Positions 1-9,121 of a DNA stretch of 9,121 nt are shown here, one piece after another. The stretch is from a virus. Its lineage: Duplodnaviria > Heunggongvirae > Uroviricota > Caudoviricetes. The DNA is taken from IMG/VR virus record IMGVR_UViG_2645727991_000010, positions 1 through 9,121 of that record. One strand, 5' to 3'. How positions within the stretch are numbered: position 1 is the first letter of the stretch; each line of letters starts with the position of its first letter. The notes under the pieces were generated by a model. It did no database searches. It was given only the letters and a program-made list of their open reading frames with translations, and was not told the origin of the DNA. Both the position numbers and the translations under genes were made by a program.

Positions 1-3000
1 CACTATGGGTATGCGCCCCGGTGTTATTCGTGGATTTAGTGCCGTAATCAAACGACGATGTGGTTTTCGTCCCCAAATCCGTACTGGATGCGCTGGCGCT
101 GTGGGTATGCGATTTAATGCCGTCCTGTTCCTGAGACAATACGGCCCGACCACTGGCAGGTTTGCCCTTAATCGTCCAGCCACGCATATCAGGGATCACG
201 CCTGACGGATAAGCGGCTGCAAGTTTCGGGTAAGCAGATTTGTCAAAAGTCTGCCCCTGCATCAGGGCATAACCAGACGGAACGGTATCTGATGGCCACG
301 GGATTGGTGCGCCGACTGGGTAGCTTTCTGGTGGAAGATTTTTCGAGGTATAAACTTCTGCCCAGTCTTCCTCAAAACCATAACCGTCTCTTGAAGAACG
401 GTAGAACAGACCACCATTTCTGTAATGCGCCTTCATCTGCAAGGTCCGGCAACTTCCGACTCCGGTATAGAAGTTAACCAGAATATAGCTGTCGCCAGAG
501 CGGGTGACATTGTAAGCACCTGATTCGGCATTCCAGGGAACGCCACCATCCGCATCGGCATATGTATCCGTTGCCCTTCTGGCAAAAGCAGCCACATGCG
601 CGGCGGTTAAAGTAATATCTCTGGAACCATCAAACTCAACACCAGAAACCCGTCTTGGCGTTTGCAGCTTTGTTGCTGTTAATGCATTACCGTTCAGACT
701 TGCGGACAGTTTGGTTCCAATAACCAGTTCGCCGGTTGCGTTATCAATAGCAAACGGTCTTAATGTATTCCAGCTACCATAAACATCACCTTGATTGGTA
801 AGCAGCAGGTAAGTTTTAGCGCCATCATTACGCCATAATGCCCCATACTCCCCACCTATCATTCGAATCTGATTACCACCACGCGCTACAATTTCGTCTG
901 TGGCAAAAAGTTTTTTGCACGACAAATTATCGTTAACGATTAACGAATGAGACTCATAAAAACCACGCCCACTCTTAAAATCAAGGATAACGTCCGCCGC
1001 GATACATTCAGTCGCTGGATTTGTTGCCCCAAACTTATAGGTCGTATCATTAACAACGAGATCAGCACCAGGTGCGGATATTGACAGGCCATCTTCGATA
1101 AACGCAAAAACAGGGAAAGCAGCGCCATCAACATAGAACACAGAGCGCAAATCATCGCCCTTATTACTCATCATTATTGAGTGGATGGCTCGTTCATTGT
1201 TTTGATATTGCCAGAACATTCCATAAGCATAACGCCCCCTGTCAGTCCAGCCACCAGGCATAACAAATCCGTTAAACTCGCAGTTATTCATCGGATCGCC
1301 TGCGGTTCGCGTTGCCGTGGTGATAATGACCCTTGATGCCAGTTCGCTTACTGAGCCAGCAGAACGCATAACAACAACAGGGTAATATTTTCCAGATGTT
1401 GCACCTGCAGGAGCGTTAACCCGCACATAACGCATACCACGCTTATCAGCAAAGTCTGTTTTACTGACCGCGTTAATGTTGTTCAGGAAGCGTCCCTTAT
1501 CGGGTATATCAGCGCCGTTCTGGTCTTTCTGCAGACGTTTCTCTGCATTGTCATAGGCTGATTTTACTGCCTTTGGCGTTGCCGCCAGCGTTTCAGACGT
1601 ACTGTTGGTCGCACTGCTGAGCTGTACTATCCCCTTTTTCGTCGTGCTCGCATCCTCAAGCGCCACGGCGGATGCAATATCCTCTGCCCGTTTTGCCGCT
1701 GTCTCGGCGCGCGTTGCCGCGGATTCCGCCGTACTTTTGCTCTGTGCTGCCGCCGTCGCACTGCCAGCTGCCTCTGTCGCCTTCGTGGATGCTGTCGTGG
1801 CGCTGCCCTTCGCTGCTGACGCCTGTCTGGTCGCCTCATCTTTTGAAGCAGACGCCGATGATGCCGATGACGCCGCCGAACTGGCTGACGATGCGGCAGC
1901 CGTTTTTGAGGATTCTGCGCTGGTTTCCGACGCTTTCGCGTTCGTTTCGGATGTCTTCGCTGCGGAAGCAGAACTCGCTGCTGCGCTGGCCTGTTCAGTG
2001 GCTTCGCCAGCCTTCGTTGTGGCTGTTGAAGCGGATGATGCGGCGCTTTCTGCCGATTTTCCGGCGGCGGTGGCACTGGCTGAGGCCTGCCCGGCACTTG
2101 TTGACGCGGCGCTGGCAGATGATGCAGCCGCTGTTTTTGAGCCTGCCGCAGCTGAGGCGCTCTGTCCCGCTGCCGTCTCAGAAGACTTAGCGTTCGTCTC
2201 GGACGTTTTTGCCGCCTTCGCGGAATTTCCTGCCGCCGTTGCCGAGGAAGTTGCGCTACTGGCGCTCGAGGATGCGTTCGTTTCTGATGATTTCGCTGCC
2301 TCTTTTGAGGCCGCCGCATCCCGGGCTGAGGTGGCAGCTTCTGACGCTTTCGTGGTCGCGGTGGATGCAGAAGTGGCTGCTGATTGTTGTGACGCTGCAG
2401 CATTCGTTTCTGACGTTTTCGCCGCACCGGCACTGGTAGCCGCCGCGCTTTTTGAGGACTCTGCAGCGGCAGCACTTTTTGAGGCTTCAGTGGCCTTTGT
2501 TGATGCCGTTCCTGCGCTGGAAGACGCTGACTGAGCCGACGACGCGGCCTGTCCGGCTGACGTGCTGGCTGCACGTGCTGAATCTGCAGCATCAGTCGCA
2601 CGGGTTGCCGCCTCACTGGCAGATGTGCTGGCATCACTGGCTGACTTCTTCGCGGCTGCCGTGTTCTGTGCCACCACGGACGCGTTACGCGCCACCTCTT
2701 CCACCATCAGTTCAAAACGACGCAGTGCCTCCGGACGGGCATCATCCTCCGTCATGGCACCGAGAAAATCATTCAGCGTACCGGGTTGAGAATCTTCATA
2801 CACGGTGATGGTCCCGGCATGTGACGGCGGGAATCCCTCCACCAACAGAATAACGCTGTACTGACCGTACTCAACGTCCATGCTGTAACGCCCGGCTTCA
2901 TCCGGATTTTCTGAGGCCAGCGTGTTCACCACCACAGTGGTACTGTTACGTTTTGCTTTCAGCTGGATTGTGCAGTTCTGTACCGGTTTTCCTGTGCCGT

Positions 3001-3031
3001 CTTTCAGTACACCTGAAATCTTTACTGCCAT
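1..3031 (-). CDS. stf: Side tail fibre protein (lambda Stf / Rac StfR-like), 3'-truncated by the window edge; ATG at 3029-3031, open frame through position 2 (at least 1010 codons)
   Basis: Not in the ORF track because there is no in-frame stop inside the window; the absence of any listed minus-strand ORF in this frame implies it is open throughout. My translation from 3031 gives [26 protein letters not shown]..., which I recognise as the lambdoid side-tail-fibre N-terminal domain. I translated the last 360 nt codon by codon: ...[104 protein letters not shown], matching the distal lambda Stf region as I recall it. Upstream in-frame stop at 3071-3073. Preceded by GGGG/GGTG 5-8 nt upstream of the ATG. 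Confidence 0.88.
1650..2700 (-). repeat. Degenerate in-frame Ala/Ser/Thr-rich repeat tract encoding the fibre shaft of Stf; recurring peptide unit ~AKTSETNA / SKSAAA
   Basis: Recurring nucleotide motif on the plus strand, gcgttcgtttc(g/t)ga(c/t)g, at about 1936-1955, 2190-2210, 2276-2290 and 2400-2420. Very high GC (about 67% in 1741-1800). Spawns long spurious ORFs in all other frames (1605-2534 +, 1627-2637 -, 1672-2190 +, 2452-2808 +). Confidence 0.6.
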
Positions 3032-3040
3032 ATTCACCCC

Positions 3041-3069
3041 ACAAAAAAGCCCGCCTGAACCGGCGGGCT
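3041..3069 (-). terminator. Rho-independent terminator downstream of lom (minus-strand transcript)
   Basis: Stem 3048-3055 (agcccgcc) pairs with 3062-3069 (ggcgggct), loop 3056-3061. On the minus strand the stem is followed by UUUUU (plus-strand A-run 3043-3047). Sits 27 nt after the lom stop and about 10 nt before the stf ATG. Confidence 0.7.
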
Positions 3070-3095
3070 GTCATAACACTGTGTTACCTGGCTAA

Positions 3096-3695
3096 TCAGA
3101 ATTTATAACCAACACCCACGATGAACCCGTCAGTGCGCCAGTCACCACTGCCGGAGCCTTCATAAGCGACATCAATGGCCACGGATTCGGTCGGGTTAAA
3201 CTGCACGCCAGCCCCCCACGCCAGAGACGTGTTGCTGTGGCGACCGTCATCACTTCCGGTCAGCACATCGTGCGTTTTCCCCTTGTTGTCAGTTACGCGA
3301 AGATAATCCCCGGAGAAAGTCGACACACGGCTGTAAGCCACGCCTGCCATCGCATACGCGCTGAACCATTCATTCACGCGTACAGACGGCCCCGCCATCA
3401 CGCTGAACCAGCGGTTACGCACGGAATCTTCATGCCAGCGGGTATCGCTGTAATGGGTCAGCTGGCGATTCTTGTCTCCTGCATAGCTGAATGACGTAAC
3501 CAGCCCCAGTGTGTCCGTAAACTCATAACGGTATTTCACGTTAATCCCGTTCAGATCATCACTGCCGGGAACGTTCGTCCGGGCATGAAGATACCCAGCG
3601 CTCAGCGTGGACTGATGTTCAGACGCCCATGCAGGCGCACCGGATACGGCCAGACAAATGGCTGCGGACAAAATGGCGGCATAAAGTTTACGCAT
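3096..3695 (-). CDS. lom: Outer-membrane beta-barrel protein Lom (Ail/Lom/PagC family), 199 aa
   Basis: ORF-track translation has a Sec signal peptide (MRKLYAAILSAAICLAVSGAPAWA, AxA cleavage site), alternating hydrophobic beta-strand pattern and C-terminal aromatic residue (…VGYKF) typical of small OMP barrels. Recognised as lambda Lom. Position between J and stf as in lambda. RBS gagagg upstream of the ATG at 3693-3695. Confidence 0.93.
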   Translation of the reverse strand: MRKLYAAILSAAICLAVSGAPAWASEHQSTLSAGYLHARTNVPGSDDLNGINVKYRYEFTDTLGLVTSFSYAGDKNRQLTHYSDTRWHEDSVRNRWFSVMAGPSVRVNEWFSAYAMAGVAYSRVSTFSGDYLRVTDNKGKTHDVLTGSDDGRHSNTSLAWGAGVQFNPTESVAIDVAYEGSGSGDWRTDGFIVGVGYKF

Positions 3696-3716
3696 AATTA
3701 CCTCTCGCTTTTCTGC

Positions 3717-3743
3717 AATAAAAAAGGCGTCATTTCTGACGCC
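3717..3743 (-). terminator. Rho-independent terminator immediately downstream of J (minus-strand transcript)
   Basis: Stem 3726-3732 (ggcgtca) pairs with 3737-3743 (tgacgcc), loop tttc. On the minus strand it is followed by UUUUUUAUU (plus-strand 3717-3725 aataaaaaa). Lies 19 nt after the J stop (3762-3764). Confidence 0.75.
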
Positions 3744-3761
3744 CGTTCTGGGTTATAAAAT

Positions 3762-7163
<3,402 letters not shown>

Positions 7164-7181
7164 TCACGCTCCATAACGACA

Positions 7182-7202
7182 AAACCGCCCGGGGGGCGGT
7201 TT
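7182..7202 (-). promoter_or_regulatory. GC-rich stem-loop in the I-J intergenic spacer, terminator-like on the coding strand
   Basis: Plus strand aaaccgccc (7182-7190) / ggg / gggcggttt (7194-7202): 9-bp stem, 3-nt loop. On the minus-strand RNA it is followed by UUUUGUCGUU and then the J Shine-Dalgarno (GGAG) and ATG. Function not established. Confidence 0.35.
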
Positions 7203-7220
7203 CACATAAAACGTTTTTCA

Positions 7221-7868
7221 TCAGCGACCAATCACCACAACCTGACCACCATCACCTTCATCTGCTGTGCTGATCTCCTGAGATACCACCCGCGACCCCA
7301 CACGCATTTCACCGTACAGAACCGGCAGAGCATTACCCTGGGCAACCATATTATCCAGTGAAGAAAAATAGGTGTTCTGTTTGCCGTTATCTGTTGTCTG
7401 TGTGCGGGGAGTTCTGGCTTTCGGTGCCAGCATCTGCGCCACACCGCCCAGAATCATACTGGCCCCTGCCGCATACATACCCGATACAGCCGCGGCACCC
7501 AGCCAGCCCACAGGGTTCCACCATGCCACCGCAATCAGCGCCGCCCCCAGCACAGCCTGAAACACACCGCCACTTTTGGCTCCTGCCAGACGCGGCACGA
7601 TATGGATCACAGCACCATTTGCCAGCGGTTCATTAAGACGGGCTGATAATTCCGTTTCACCTGTATCACGCCCGGCAATGCGTACCTGATACCAGCCGTC
7701 GCTCAGCTTCTGACGAAACGCCGGGATCTGCATGGCCAGCGCCCGGATGGCTTCGGCCCCCGTTTTCACACGAAGGTCGATGCGGCGGCCAAATCGTTGC
7801 AAATCCCCGTAAAGGCAGATGCGTGCCATGCCCGGTGACGCCAGAGGGAGTGTGTGCGTCGCTGCCAT
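7221..7868 (-). CDS. I: Tail tip assembly protein I, 215 aa
   Basis: ORF-track protein MAATHTLPLASPGMARICLYGDLQRFGRRIDLRVKTGAEAIRALA… and C-terminus …VVSQEISTADEGDGGQVVVIGR recognised as lambda gpI. ATG at 7866-7868 with purine-rich RBS (gagagagg) upstream. Its 5' end overlaps the 3' end of K out of frame, as in lambda. Confidence 0.95.
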   Translation of the reverse strand: MAATHTLPLASPGMARICLYGDLQRFGRRIDLRVKTGAEAIRALAMQIPAFRQKLSDGWYQVRIAGRDTGETELSARLNEPLANGAVIHIVPRLAGAKSGGVFQAVLGAALIAVAWWNPVGWLGAAAVSGMYAAGASMILGGVAQMLAPKARTPRTQTTDNGKQNTYFSSLDNMVAQGNALPVLYGEMRVGSRVVSQEISTADEGDGGQVVVIGR

Positions 7869-8509
7869 TTGTCGGTATACCTCTCTCGTTTACTCAGTTG
7901 TTCAGGAATATGGTGCAGCAGCTCGCCATCACCACAGTAAATGGCGGCATGATTCGGCACCGATGAACCAAAACAGCACAGCAGCACATCGCCCGGTTGT
8001 GCTGATGACAACGGCACCTGATACAGCCCTGTGGCCTCCAGATTATCCAGATAGAGATTCTGACCGTGACGCCACCAGTCATCCTCGCGATGAAAATCCG
8101 GCATCTCAATCCCCGCCAGATGATAAGCATCCCGGAACAGCGTGTAACAGTCCGTCACCCCGTGCTCAAAGCGCCGTCCGGTGAGATGCGGCACACAGCG
8201 GAACTTATGAATCGCCCCCCGGCAGACCAGCCACCACGGCAAATCACTCTGCACCTGCAGCCGCCGGTCAGTCTCACTCAGCCAGGGCAGACCACCGGGG
8301 TGGCTGTGGACCAGCGCCACAATCTCACCCTGCATTTCTGCCTGCAGCCAGTCCTCCGGCGACATACGGAAATACGCCTCCGGCTCACCGGAGATATTCA
8401 CGCAGGGAAAATAGCTTTCCCCCTCCGGCGTTCTCACCACGAAGCCGCACGACTCCGCTGGCGCACATCGCCGGGCGTGCGCCAGAATCGCTGATTCTGT
8501 CTCTGTCAT
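7766..8509 (-). CDS. K: Tail tip assembly protein K: N-terminal JAMM/MPN metalloprotease-like domain plus C-terminal NlpC/P60-like domain; 247 aa from the ATG at 8507-8509
   Basis: Recognised as lambda gpK (MTETESAILAHARRCAPAESCGFVV…). JAMM motif H-x-H-x7-S-x2-D is present (HSHPGGLPWLSETD, nt 8267-8308) with the upstream E-x-C-G motif (AESCGF, Glu codon 8453-8455). Cys/His candidates for an NlpC/P60 fold (…VTDCYTLF…, …NHAAIY…). The track's start at 8551 is a TTG lying inside L; the ATG at 8509 sits 4 nt after the L stop. Alternative internal Met at 8365 would give 199 aa. Confidence 0.88.
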   Translation of the reverse strand: MTETESAILAHARRCAPAESCGFVVRTPEGESYFPCVNISGEPEAYFRMSPEDWLQAEMQGEIVALVHSHPGGLPWLSETDRRLQVQSDLPWWLVCRGAIHKFRCVPHLTGRRFEHGVTDCYTLFRDAYHLAGIEMPDFHREDDWWRHGQNLYLDNLEATGLYQVPLSSAQPGDVLLCCFGSSVPNHAAIYCGDGELLHHIPEQLSKRERYTDKWQRRTHSLWRHRAWHASAFTGICNDLAAASTFV

Positions 8510-8513
8510 GGGA

Positions 8514-9121
8514 TTACTGCGAAAGTTTGTTAATGGAAAGGAAACCGCCAAAGTTGCCGACGTTATTGCGGAACTTACAGCCGCTCAGGCATTTGCTGCA
8601 TTTATCCTTCGTTATATCGGACGTCGGCTGGTCATATTCATCCGCGACAGCCGGACCGTTATAACCGCACTCATCACCGCGATAGGTCCAGGTGCAGGTG
8701 TTGGCCAGCATGGTACGTCCCGGAAAAACAGCGCCATCCGTTTCCGTCGGCGTGGCCAGTACAAAAGAGGCACTGACTGCGCTCAGTTCGCTGCACTGCT
8801 CGATGCGCCAGCGGCTGATCACCTCCTGCTCCGGATCGGCGTTGCTGTTTCCGCTGACGAAGTTCACCGCATCCAGAAAACGGGCGTAAACCTTACGCCG
8901 GACCACCGTTCCGCCGACCAGACTCTGCATATCTTCCGCCATCCCGGTGACCATACCGTACAGGTTAGAAACCGTCAGCGTGGGGCGCGTACTGGTGCCT
9001 TTGCCATTCAGTTCAAAACCGCCCCCCTGAATGGGATACGGCTGATACTGTCGCCCCTGCCAGGTGACCGGCTCACCTTTTTCGTTCTGCTCATTACAGA
9101 AAAAATAACGTTCTCCACCGA
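8514..9121 (-). CDS. L: Tail tip assembly protein L, 5'-truncated by the window edge (C-terminal ~200 codons present)
   Basis: The track lists only 8514-8954 from an internal Met. Translating upstream in the same frame to the window edge gives …GGERYFFCNEQNEKGEPVTWQGRQYQPYPIQGGGFELNGKGTSTRPTLTVSNLYGMVTGMAEDMQSLVGG… with no stop, continuous with the listed ORF. C-terminus …CSKCLSGCKFRNNVGNFGGFLSINKLSQ (Cys cluster) recognised as lambda gpL. Confidence 0.92.
   Translation of the reverse strand, partial: GGERYFFCNEQNEKGEPVTWQGRQYQPYPIQGGGFELNGKGTSTRPTLTVSNLYGMVTGMAEDMQSLVGGTVVRRKVYARFLDAVNFVSGNSNADPEQEVISRWRIEQCSELSAVSASFVLATPTETDGAVFPGRTMLANTCTWTYRGDECGYNGPAVADEYDQPTSDITKDKCSKCLSGCKFRNNVGNFGGFLSINKLSQ

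Follow-up and report, generated by a model that had tools for sequence, protein, structure and literature searches.

What is the long alanine- and serine-rich tract in the side tail fibre gene of this lambdoid prophage, and does its repetition make fibre length prone to change? The window analyzed here, a stretch of 9,121 nt (IMGVR_UViG_2645727991_000010, positions 1-9,121), is the tail-tip end of a lambdoid prophage and carries on its minus strand a partial stf gene that contains the tract. A first-pass annotation of the same DNA had described an Ala/Ser-rich repeat shaft in Stf with at least four or five copies of an AKTSETNA-type unit, had proposed it as a hotspot of length variation, and had attributed to it every long alternative-frame open reading frame (ORF) of the interval. 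We find that the tract is very probably the proximal coiled-coil shaft (“PCoil”) of a side tail fibre of the lambda/Rac type. Its length changes in whole heptads, rarely and on an evolutionary time scale, and it is not a fast-changing hotspot.

The gene itself was identified from several lines of comparison. The prophage tail fibre N-terminal domain PF08400 was found on residues 1-134 (E 9e-72), and the “Tail fiber protein” chain of the Ur-lambda fibre collar (9e7m/9mgh) matches residues 1-94 (E 4.9e-52). The 1.7 kb between window positions 1400 and 3100 align without a gap to stfR of the Escherichia coli K-12 Rac prophage at 97% DNA identity, and the phages 2H10, Chlobot and mEp332 are 96-97% identical across the whole window. 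The gene lies downstream of J and lom, and matching E. coli loci are annotated as Lom followed by stfR. On the basis of the Pfam and structure matches and the identity to K-12 stfR and to the three phages, the gene is classified by sequence as encoding an StfR-type side tail fibre, in agreement with the placement of the repeat shaft in Stf by the first-pass annotation. The fibre protein is laid out as follows, from the N-terminus onwards.

2-3031, minus strand: partial stf gene (stfR type), at least 1010 amino acids (aa), with its ATG at 3031 and truncated by the left window end (translation; Pfam phage_tail_N, Gp34_trimer and Collar; DNA identity to K-12 stfR)
2684-3031, minus strand: N-terminal domain (PfN, collar/attachment), residues 1-116 (PF08400; 9e7m/9mgh)
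1661-2683, minus strand: heptad tract, residues 117-457, 48.7 uninterrupted heptads of the form x-x-S-A-x-x-A (autocorrelation, heptad stack, single-phase Viterbi path, AlphaFold2, literature on homologues)
1532-1648, minus strand: conserved post-coil motif (Pf2-like), residues 462-500 (tblastn; 5yvq)
746-1045, minus strand: T4 gp34 trimerisation-like domain, residues 663-762 (PF21446, E 1.1e-26)
2-328, minus strand: Collar domain and start of the T4 gp37-like receptor-binding tip, residues 902-1010, truncated by the window end (2xgf_A; PF07484)

The tract is highly regular at the protein level. In an autocorrelation analysis, residue identity at lags of 7, 14 and so on up to 119 was 0.38-0.46, compared with 0.225 in shuffled sequences, and z was 7.3-10.5 at every multiple of seven up to lag 119, with all other lags non-significant (the largest z among 1000 shuffles was 4.2). 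Written in rows of seven, the residues stack as x-x-S-A-x-x-A, with Ala in 89% of rows at position 7, Ser in 70% at position 3 and Ala in 65% at position 4. With phase shifts permitted, a heptad hidden Markov model still returned a single unbroken segment covering residues 117-457 (window 2683-1661; 48.7 heptads). Self-comparison of the tract thus gives a clear 7-residue periodicity and not compositional bias only. The recurring AKTSETNA-type unit is real in the form K-x-SET-x-A, which occurs six times (residues 205, 247, 275, 282, 359 and 366). These six are only some of the heptads, however; what repeats is a 7-aa unit, present in about 49 copies. Collagen-like Gly-X-Y triplets were not detected in the tract, as there is no period-3 signal (lag 3, z = 0.9) and Gly is rare.

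A structural model and published work on homologues connect this pattern to a coiled coil. The AlphaFold2 monomer model of residues 90-520 is helical over residues 95-474, with a mean pLDDT (predicted local distance difference test score) of 80. In prophage fibres of E. coli O157, the low-complexity Ala/Ser region that follows PfN was named “PCoil”; a PCoil fragment is alpha-helical by circular dichroism (CD), mainly trimeric by size-exclusion chromatography with multi-angle laser light scattering (SEC-MALLS), and appears as a stalk in rotary-shadowing electron microscopy (EM) (Ghosh et al. 2012, PMC3368898). The same study described a loose A-x-x-A/S-x-x-S heptad, found that PCoil lengths vary in multiples of seven, and counted lambda Stf and K-12 StfR among the relatives of these fibres (PMC3368898). 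A 2025 structure paper on Ur-lambda presents gpStf as a trimer with a collar domain (1-91), a linker and a modelled proximal coiled-coil domain at 102-393 (PMC12617516).

Tract length among relatives follows the same unit. Lambda has a tract exactly 15 heptads (105 aa) shorter, in register and in heptad-by-heptad alignment with that of the window, and Gifsy-2 shows the same 105-aa difference in span. Among 21 diverse relatives with both flanking anchors, 20 differ in length by an exact multiple of 7 aa, in classes of -32, -31, -29, -16, -15 and 0 heptads. Representatives that share the N-terminal domain, clustered at 50% identity, have tracts of 0 to 48.7 heptads, nearly always in a single phase. 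The window tract is the same domain in its longest common form. The claim that fibre length varies between related prophages is therefore upheld: variation is real across long evolutionary distances and comes in whole heptads, but, as detailed below, length is nearly constant among close relatives.

These results also bear on the alternative that the tract is a compositionally biased, disordered low-complexity linker with no defined structure. Ala, Ser and Thr together make up 70-80% of residues 151-450, the low-complexity filter of BLAST masks the tract, and neither Pfam nor the Protein Data Bank (PDB) provides a match to it, all of which would suit such a linker. Against it stand the strict heptad periodicity with its phase unbroken through 341 residues, the length differences in whole heptads, the helix predicted with high confidence, and the demonstration by CD, SEC-MALLS and EM that the homologous domain is a folded coiled coil (PMC3368898). 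We consider a disordered linker highly improbable and retain the coiled-coil shaft.

Several observations nevertheless weigh against a coiled-coil shaft. The PDB sequence search found no solved structure on residues 117-440, its matches being restricted to the N-terminal domain, the post-coil motif and the distal parts of the fibre, and in the Pfam search no family matched the tract. The predicted core holds Ala and Ser instead of Leu and Ile, which is atypical of coiled coils. The AlphaFold2 monomer folds back at its midpoint, with a sole break at residues 281-284, which we regard as an artefact of single-chain modelling. The 21 diverse relatives are phylogenetically non-independent and represent only about six length classes. 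Finally, in three relatives (P0049, P0055 and P0062) a change of +3 or -3 aa interrupts the heptad phase; therefore, either the constraint on register is not absolute or those copies are defective.

By analogy with the homologues, we propose that in about 49 consecutive heptads the core (a and d, positions 4 and 7 of the heptad) is occupied by Ala and flanked by Ser at position 3, and that three such chains would pack in parallel as a single uninterrupted alpha-helical coiled coil. The 341 residues would give a shaft of about 50 nm (0.148 nm per residue), some 15 nm longer than that of lambda. It would serve as a spacer between the N-terminal collar, which sits on the tail, and the distal receptor-binding part that resembles T4 gp37. 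Because the helical register would have to run unbroken from the N-terminal domain to the post-coil motif, surviving length changes would be confined to whole heptads. Their proposed sources are infrequent recombination or deletion events that join similar heptads in register, together with mosaic exchange involving other fibre genes; replication slippage would not be among them.

The shaft is followed by elements shared with other fibre families. The post-coil motif is common to the P2 H, 186 K, P1 and Mu S fibres (tblastn matches to P2-, 186-, P1- and Mu-type phages), and the Mu S fibre chain 5yvq matches residues 441-521 (E 3.6e-29). The corresponding Pfam family, PF03406 (Pf2), was not reported for the window protein at E <= 0.1; the motif itself was recognized by homology to the lambda, P2, 186, P1 and Mu fibres, and relatives with two copies of the motif bear a precomputed PF03406 annotation. 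Two copies are also present in the consensus of 17 aligned homologues. The distal part of the fibre is T4-like, with a gp34-like trimerisation domain and a gp37-like tip. The solved T4 gp34 chains 4uxe and 5nxf give weaker matches on residues 706-777 (E about 1e-10), the T4 gp37 tip 2xgf_A matches residues 902-1010 (E 2.2e-55), and the Collar domain PF07484 lies on residues 907-954.

Whether the tract could also be a source of rapid length change depends on how similar its repeats are as DNA. The top autocorrelation lags of the tract DNA are all multiples of 21, and near-repeats are present, many of them spaced by multiples of 21 nt. The matching DNA repeats claimed by the first-pass annotation thus exist, but they are weak, at 15-45 nt and 60-88% identity. 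Tandem Repeats Finder, run on 1400-3100, reported just three arrays of 25-54 nt, none of which covers the tract. No exact repeat in the 1023-nt tract exceeds 11 nt; the longest one measures 12.5 nt on average in column-shuffled controls and 10 nt in an ordinary part of stf. Both exact 11-mers sit in K-x-SETNA heptads. Identical residues in different heptads do not share codons beyond the expectation from codon usage (|z| < 2 at 27 of 29 lags, maximum 2.4). No convincing unit larger than the heptad was found when blocks of 1-15 heptads were compared with column-shuffled controls (p = 0.06-0.77 for DNA, 0.02-0.5 for protein). Recent duplication or homogenisation of heptads was considered and rejected, given that the synonymous-codon test shows no excess of shared codons. 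The 21-nt period is only what the protein pattern imposes. Because the near-repeats are weak, the longest repeat is 11 nt, codons are not shared beyond expectation and no larger unit stands out, the heptads are old and diverged at the DNA level and offer little substrate for slippage. As a separate observation, a 17-nt inverted repeat (94% complementary; arms at 1649-1665 and 2260-2276, 594 nt apart) is present and is probably a chance occurrence in biased sequence.

Close relatives are nearly invariant in length. The anchor-to-anchor length is identical to that of the window in 112 of 120 protein clusters (both anchors could be measured in 118). Two independent in-phase deletions of four heptads occur among the close relatives, and that of P0106/P0116 lies between the KSSETNA heptad at residue 247 and the KTSETNA heptad at residue 275. 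Four partial fibre homologues (P0014, P0022, P0031 and P0036) are named “short-chain fatty acid transporter” by NCBI, which looks like a misannotation.

At the DNA level, the stretch around the tract (1400-3100) has 16,356 matching places across 5,426 complete E. coli genomes; it is matched in 4,962 of these genomes, and over at least 80% of its length in 3,546. When the E. coli hits were sampled at even spacing, 27 alignments spanned the tract: 19 showed no net change, five differed by 1-5 nt and three were longer by about 132 nt. None fits a change in heptad number. The three variants longer by 131 or 132 nt (H9, H10 and H15) were considered as candidates for such a change and rejected; in H9 (strain T43, NZ_CP106954.1), the one inspected, the 44-aa post-coil motif is present a second time immediately downstream of the tract, which accounts for the extra DNA, and there is a frameshift as well. 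This frameshift lies near the end of the heptad tract, and the T43 stf is annotated as a pseudogene.

We therefore weighed the possibility that the tract is a contingency-type hypervariable repeat, in which near-identical DNA units slip or recombine often and fibre length changes fast in closely related prophages. Consistent with it are the 21-nt DNA periodicity, the few indels among close relatives (the two 4-heptad deletions and the +3/-3 aa changes) and the family-wide range of 0 to 49 heptads. It is contradicted by exact repeats no longer than in the column-shuffled null and about equal to those in ordinary coding sequence, by the lack of a tract-covering tandem array, by synonymous codons that speak against recent duplication or homogenisation, by the constancy of close protein clusters, by the 27 spanning alignments without a single heptad-number change and by the full-length version in 3,546 of 5,426 genomes. 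A hypervariable repeat is very unlikely, and the proposal of a slippage-driven length hotspot does not hold. A coiled-coil shaft that changes length rarely, in whole heptads, accounts for the tract.

Some of the rearrangements fall on a particular type of heptad. The Stf of E. coli LR-24 (2570-5875 of the examined locus) is near-identical to the window protein up to the KTSETNA heptad at residues 275-281 and unrelated after it; past the junction it continues with 9-10 different heptads, rich in K-x-SETNA, and then an unrelated C-terminal part. A fibre gene on the 112-kb plasmid pJSWP021_2 (2253-5954 of the examined locus) begins with an unrelated 58-aa N-terminus and shares window residues 212-428 at 18-21 of 21 nt per heptad, with near-identity starting right after a KKSETNA heptad that aligns with residue 205. 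Neighbouring features in the pJSWP021_2 record are phage tail proteins, and it may be a phage-plasmid. Together with the P0106/P0116 deletion, these make three independent events on K-x-SETNA heptads: junctions at residues 205 and 281 and a deletion between 247 and 275. The heptads concerned, and the remaining pair of this type, are located as follows.

2399-2419, minus strand: KTSETNA heptad, residues 205-211; mosaic junction with the fibre gene of the 112-kb plasmid
2273-2293, minus strand: KSSETNA heptad, residues 247-253; one endpoint of the P0106/P0116 4-heptad deletion
2168-2209, minus strand: KTSETNA and KSSETAA heptads, residues 275-288; the P0106/P0116 deletion has its second endpoint in KTSETNA, and the LR-24 Stf junction lies between the two heptads
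1916-1957, minus strand: KTSETNA and KASETSA heptads, residues 359-372

A tentative and rather doubtful suggestion is that the K-x-SETNA heptads, as the sole sites of the tract with DNA conserved between heptads, may be preferred points of in-register crossover. Through such crossovers, fibres might exchange their distal modules or gain and lose whole heptads while the coiled coil stays intact. The shaft, about 35 nm long with 34 heptads and about 50 nm with 49, might in this way be matched to how thick the host surface layer is.

The tract also holds long ORFs in other frames, the most prominent of which are listed here.

1605-2534, plus strand: antisense ORF of 309 aa, a by-product of codon composition and not a gene (codon shuffles)
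1627-2637, minus strand: +1-frame ORF of 336 aa, rich in Pro, Arg and Gln, a by-product of codon composition and not a gene (codon shuffles)
1672-2190, plus strand: further long alternative-frame ORF, a by-product of codon composition

A codon-shuffled tract has the composition of the original but has lost the order of its repeats. Four of the five alternative frames stayed open over equally long stretches, the observed length being attained in 0.27-0.55 of shuffles; for the fifth frame the fraction is a marginal 0.045. Mean open length in shuffled tracts was 273 codons in the +1 sense frame and 240 in one antisense frame, and the observed lengths lie inside the distributions. In an equally long control stretch of stf, open frames do not exceed 88 codons. 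Because the codon-shuffled tract stays equally open, the long alternative ORFs are by-products of GCN, TCN and ACN codon usage, and repetition does not keep the frames open. The first-pass attribution of all long alternative-frame ORFs to the tract is correct in that the tract accounts for them (marginally so for the fifth frame), but the cause is codon composition rather than repeat order. The same region (window positions 1500-2700) has a raised GC content of 0.60-0.63 and a lowered AT skew on the plus strand, between -0.3 and -0.5, probably also from GCN/TCN/ACN codon usage.

An overlapping gene in one of these frames (1605-2534 on the plus strand or 1627-2637 on the minus strand, for example) has in its favour the sheer length of the ORFs and a comparable annotation in lambda. 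The lambda GenBank record (J02459) lists an antisense “orf206b” within the Ala/Ser tract of orf-401 (1998-2618 of the examined locus, minus strand). The shuffles argue against such a gene, with fractions of 0.35 and 0.30 reaching the observed lengths of the +1 and antisense frames, respectively, as do the extreme low complexity of the products (rich in Pro/Arg/Gln or in Ala/Val/Asp/Phe) and the short frames of the control. We regard a real overlapping gene as extremely unlikely, and lambda orf206b is most likely an open frame of the same composition-driven type, with no real gene behind it.

Upstream of stf, the window encodes the tail-tip genes in the order L, K, I, J, lom and stf, all on the minus strand.

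8954-8514, minus strand: L (ORF list)
8551-7766, minus strand: K (ORF list)
7868-7221, minus strand: I (ORF list)
7160-3762, minus strand: J, 1132 aa (ORF list)
3695-3096, minus strand: lom (ORF list)
3048-3069, minus strand: terminator-like hairpin with a T run between lom and stf, ending 17 nt upstream of the stf ATG

A second terminator-like hairpin with a T run is found in the gap between J and lom (3725-3744, minus strand).

The tract is a domain already described, in a gene carried by most E. coli genomes, and understanding of tail fibre biology is unchanged by it. Only two aspects are mildly new: the phase is strictly kept through 49 heptads, and junctions cluster on K-x-SETNA heptads (three events). 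For annotation, the appropriate label for the tract is Stf coiled-coil shaft, and gene calls should not be made on the long out-of-frame ORFs; the lambda record retains one such call, orf206b. For engineering, the whole-heptad rule and the K-x-SETNA junction positions can guide the design of chimeric or length-altered lambda-type fibres for phage-based delivery vehicles; in the portion considered here, a paper on chimeric Stf engineering (PMC11338833) makes no mention of the tract.

Trimeric coiled coils of the alanine-zipper type, such as the Ala-rich stretch of the Braun lipoprotein Lpp-56, place Ala at the a and d core positions of a parallel trimer. The likeness to Lpp-56 is a structural analogy only, with no sequence relationship, and the window tract is far longer. 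The PCoil of the EPclA and EPclB fibres of enterohaemorrhagic E. coli (PMC3368898) follows the same PfN domain and is likewise Ala/Ser-rich and of low complexity, with its A-x-x-A/S-x-x-S heptad. The trimeric helix of the EPclA PfN-PCoil fragment was established by experiment, whereas the helix of the window tract is a monomer prediction. The EPcl PCoil is also much shorter, about 16 nm by EM with a predicted coiled coil at residues 101-245, compared with 341 residues here. It is followed by a collagen triple helix, whereas the window tract leads to a Pf2 motif and T4-like fibre domains with no Gly-X-Y repeats.

Lambda Stf, described as a coiled coil of a trimeric fibre (PMC12617516), begins with the same N-terminal domain as the window protein (9e7m, residues 1-94). 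The two share the heptad motif and its register, with heptads aligning one to one up to about residue 302, and the same post-coil motif; they differ in the 15 heptads (about 15 nm) by which the lambda tract is shorter, and in the middle part of the fibre, where the window protein has the gp34-like domain. The nearest known system is the K-12 Rac StfR (P76072), whose alignment over 1400-3100 is free of indels. The window prophage has L, K, I, J and lom intact upstream of stf, most of which we take to be missing from the Rac remnant of K-12. Within the group formed by the window, StfR, 2H10, Chlobot and mEp332, only point substitutions distinguish the sequences, and Chlobot, which has the same span for residues 1-520, very probably carries the same 49-heptad tract.

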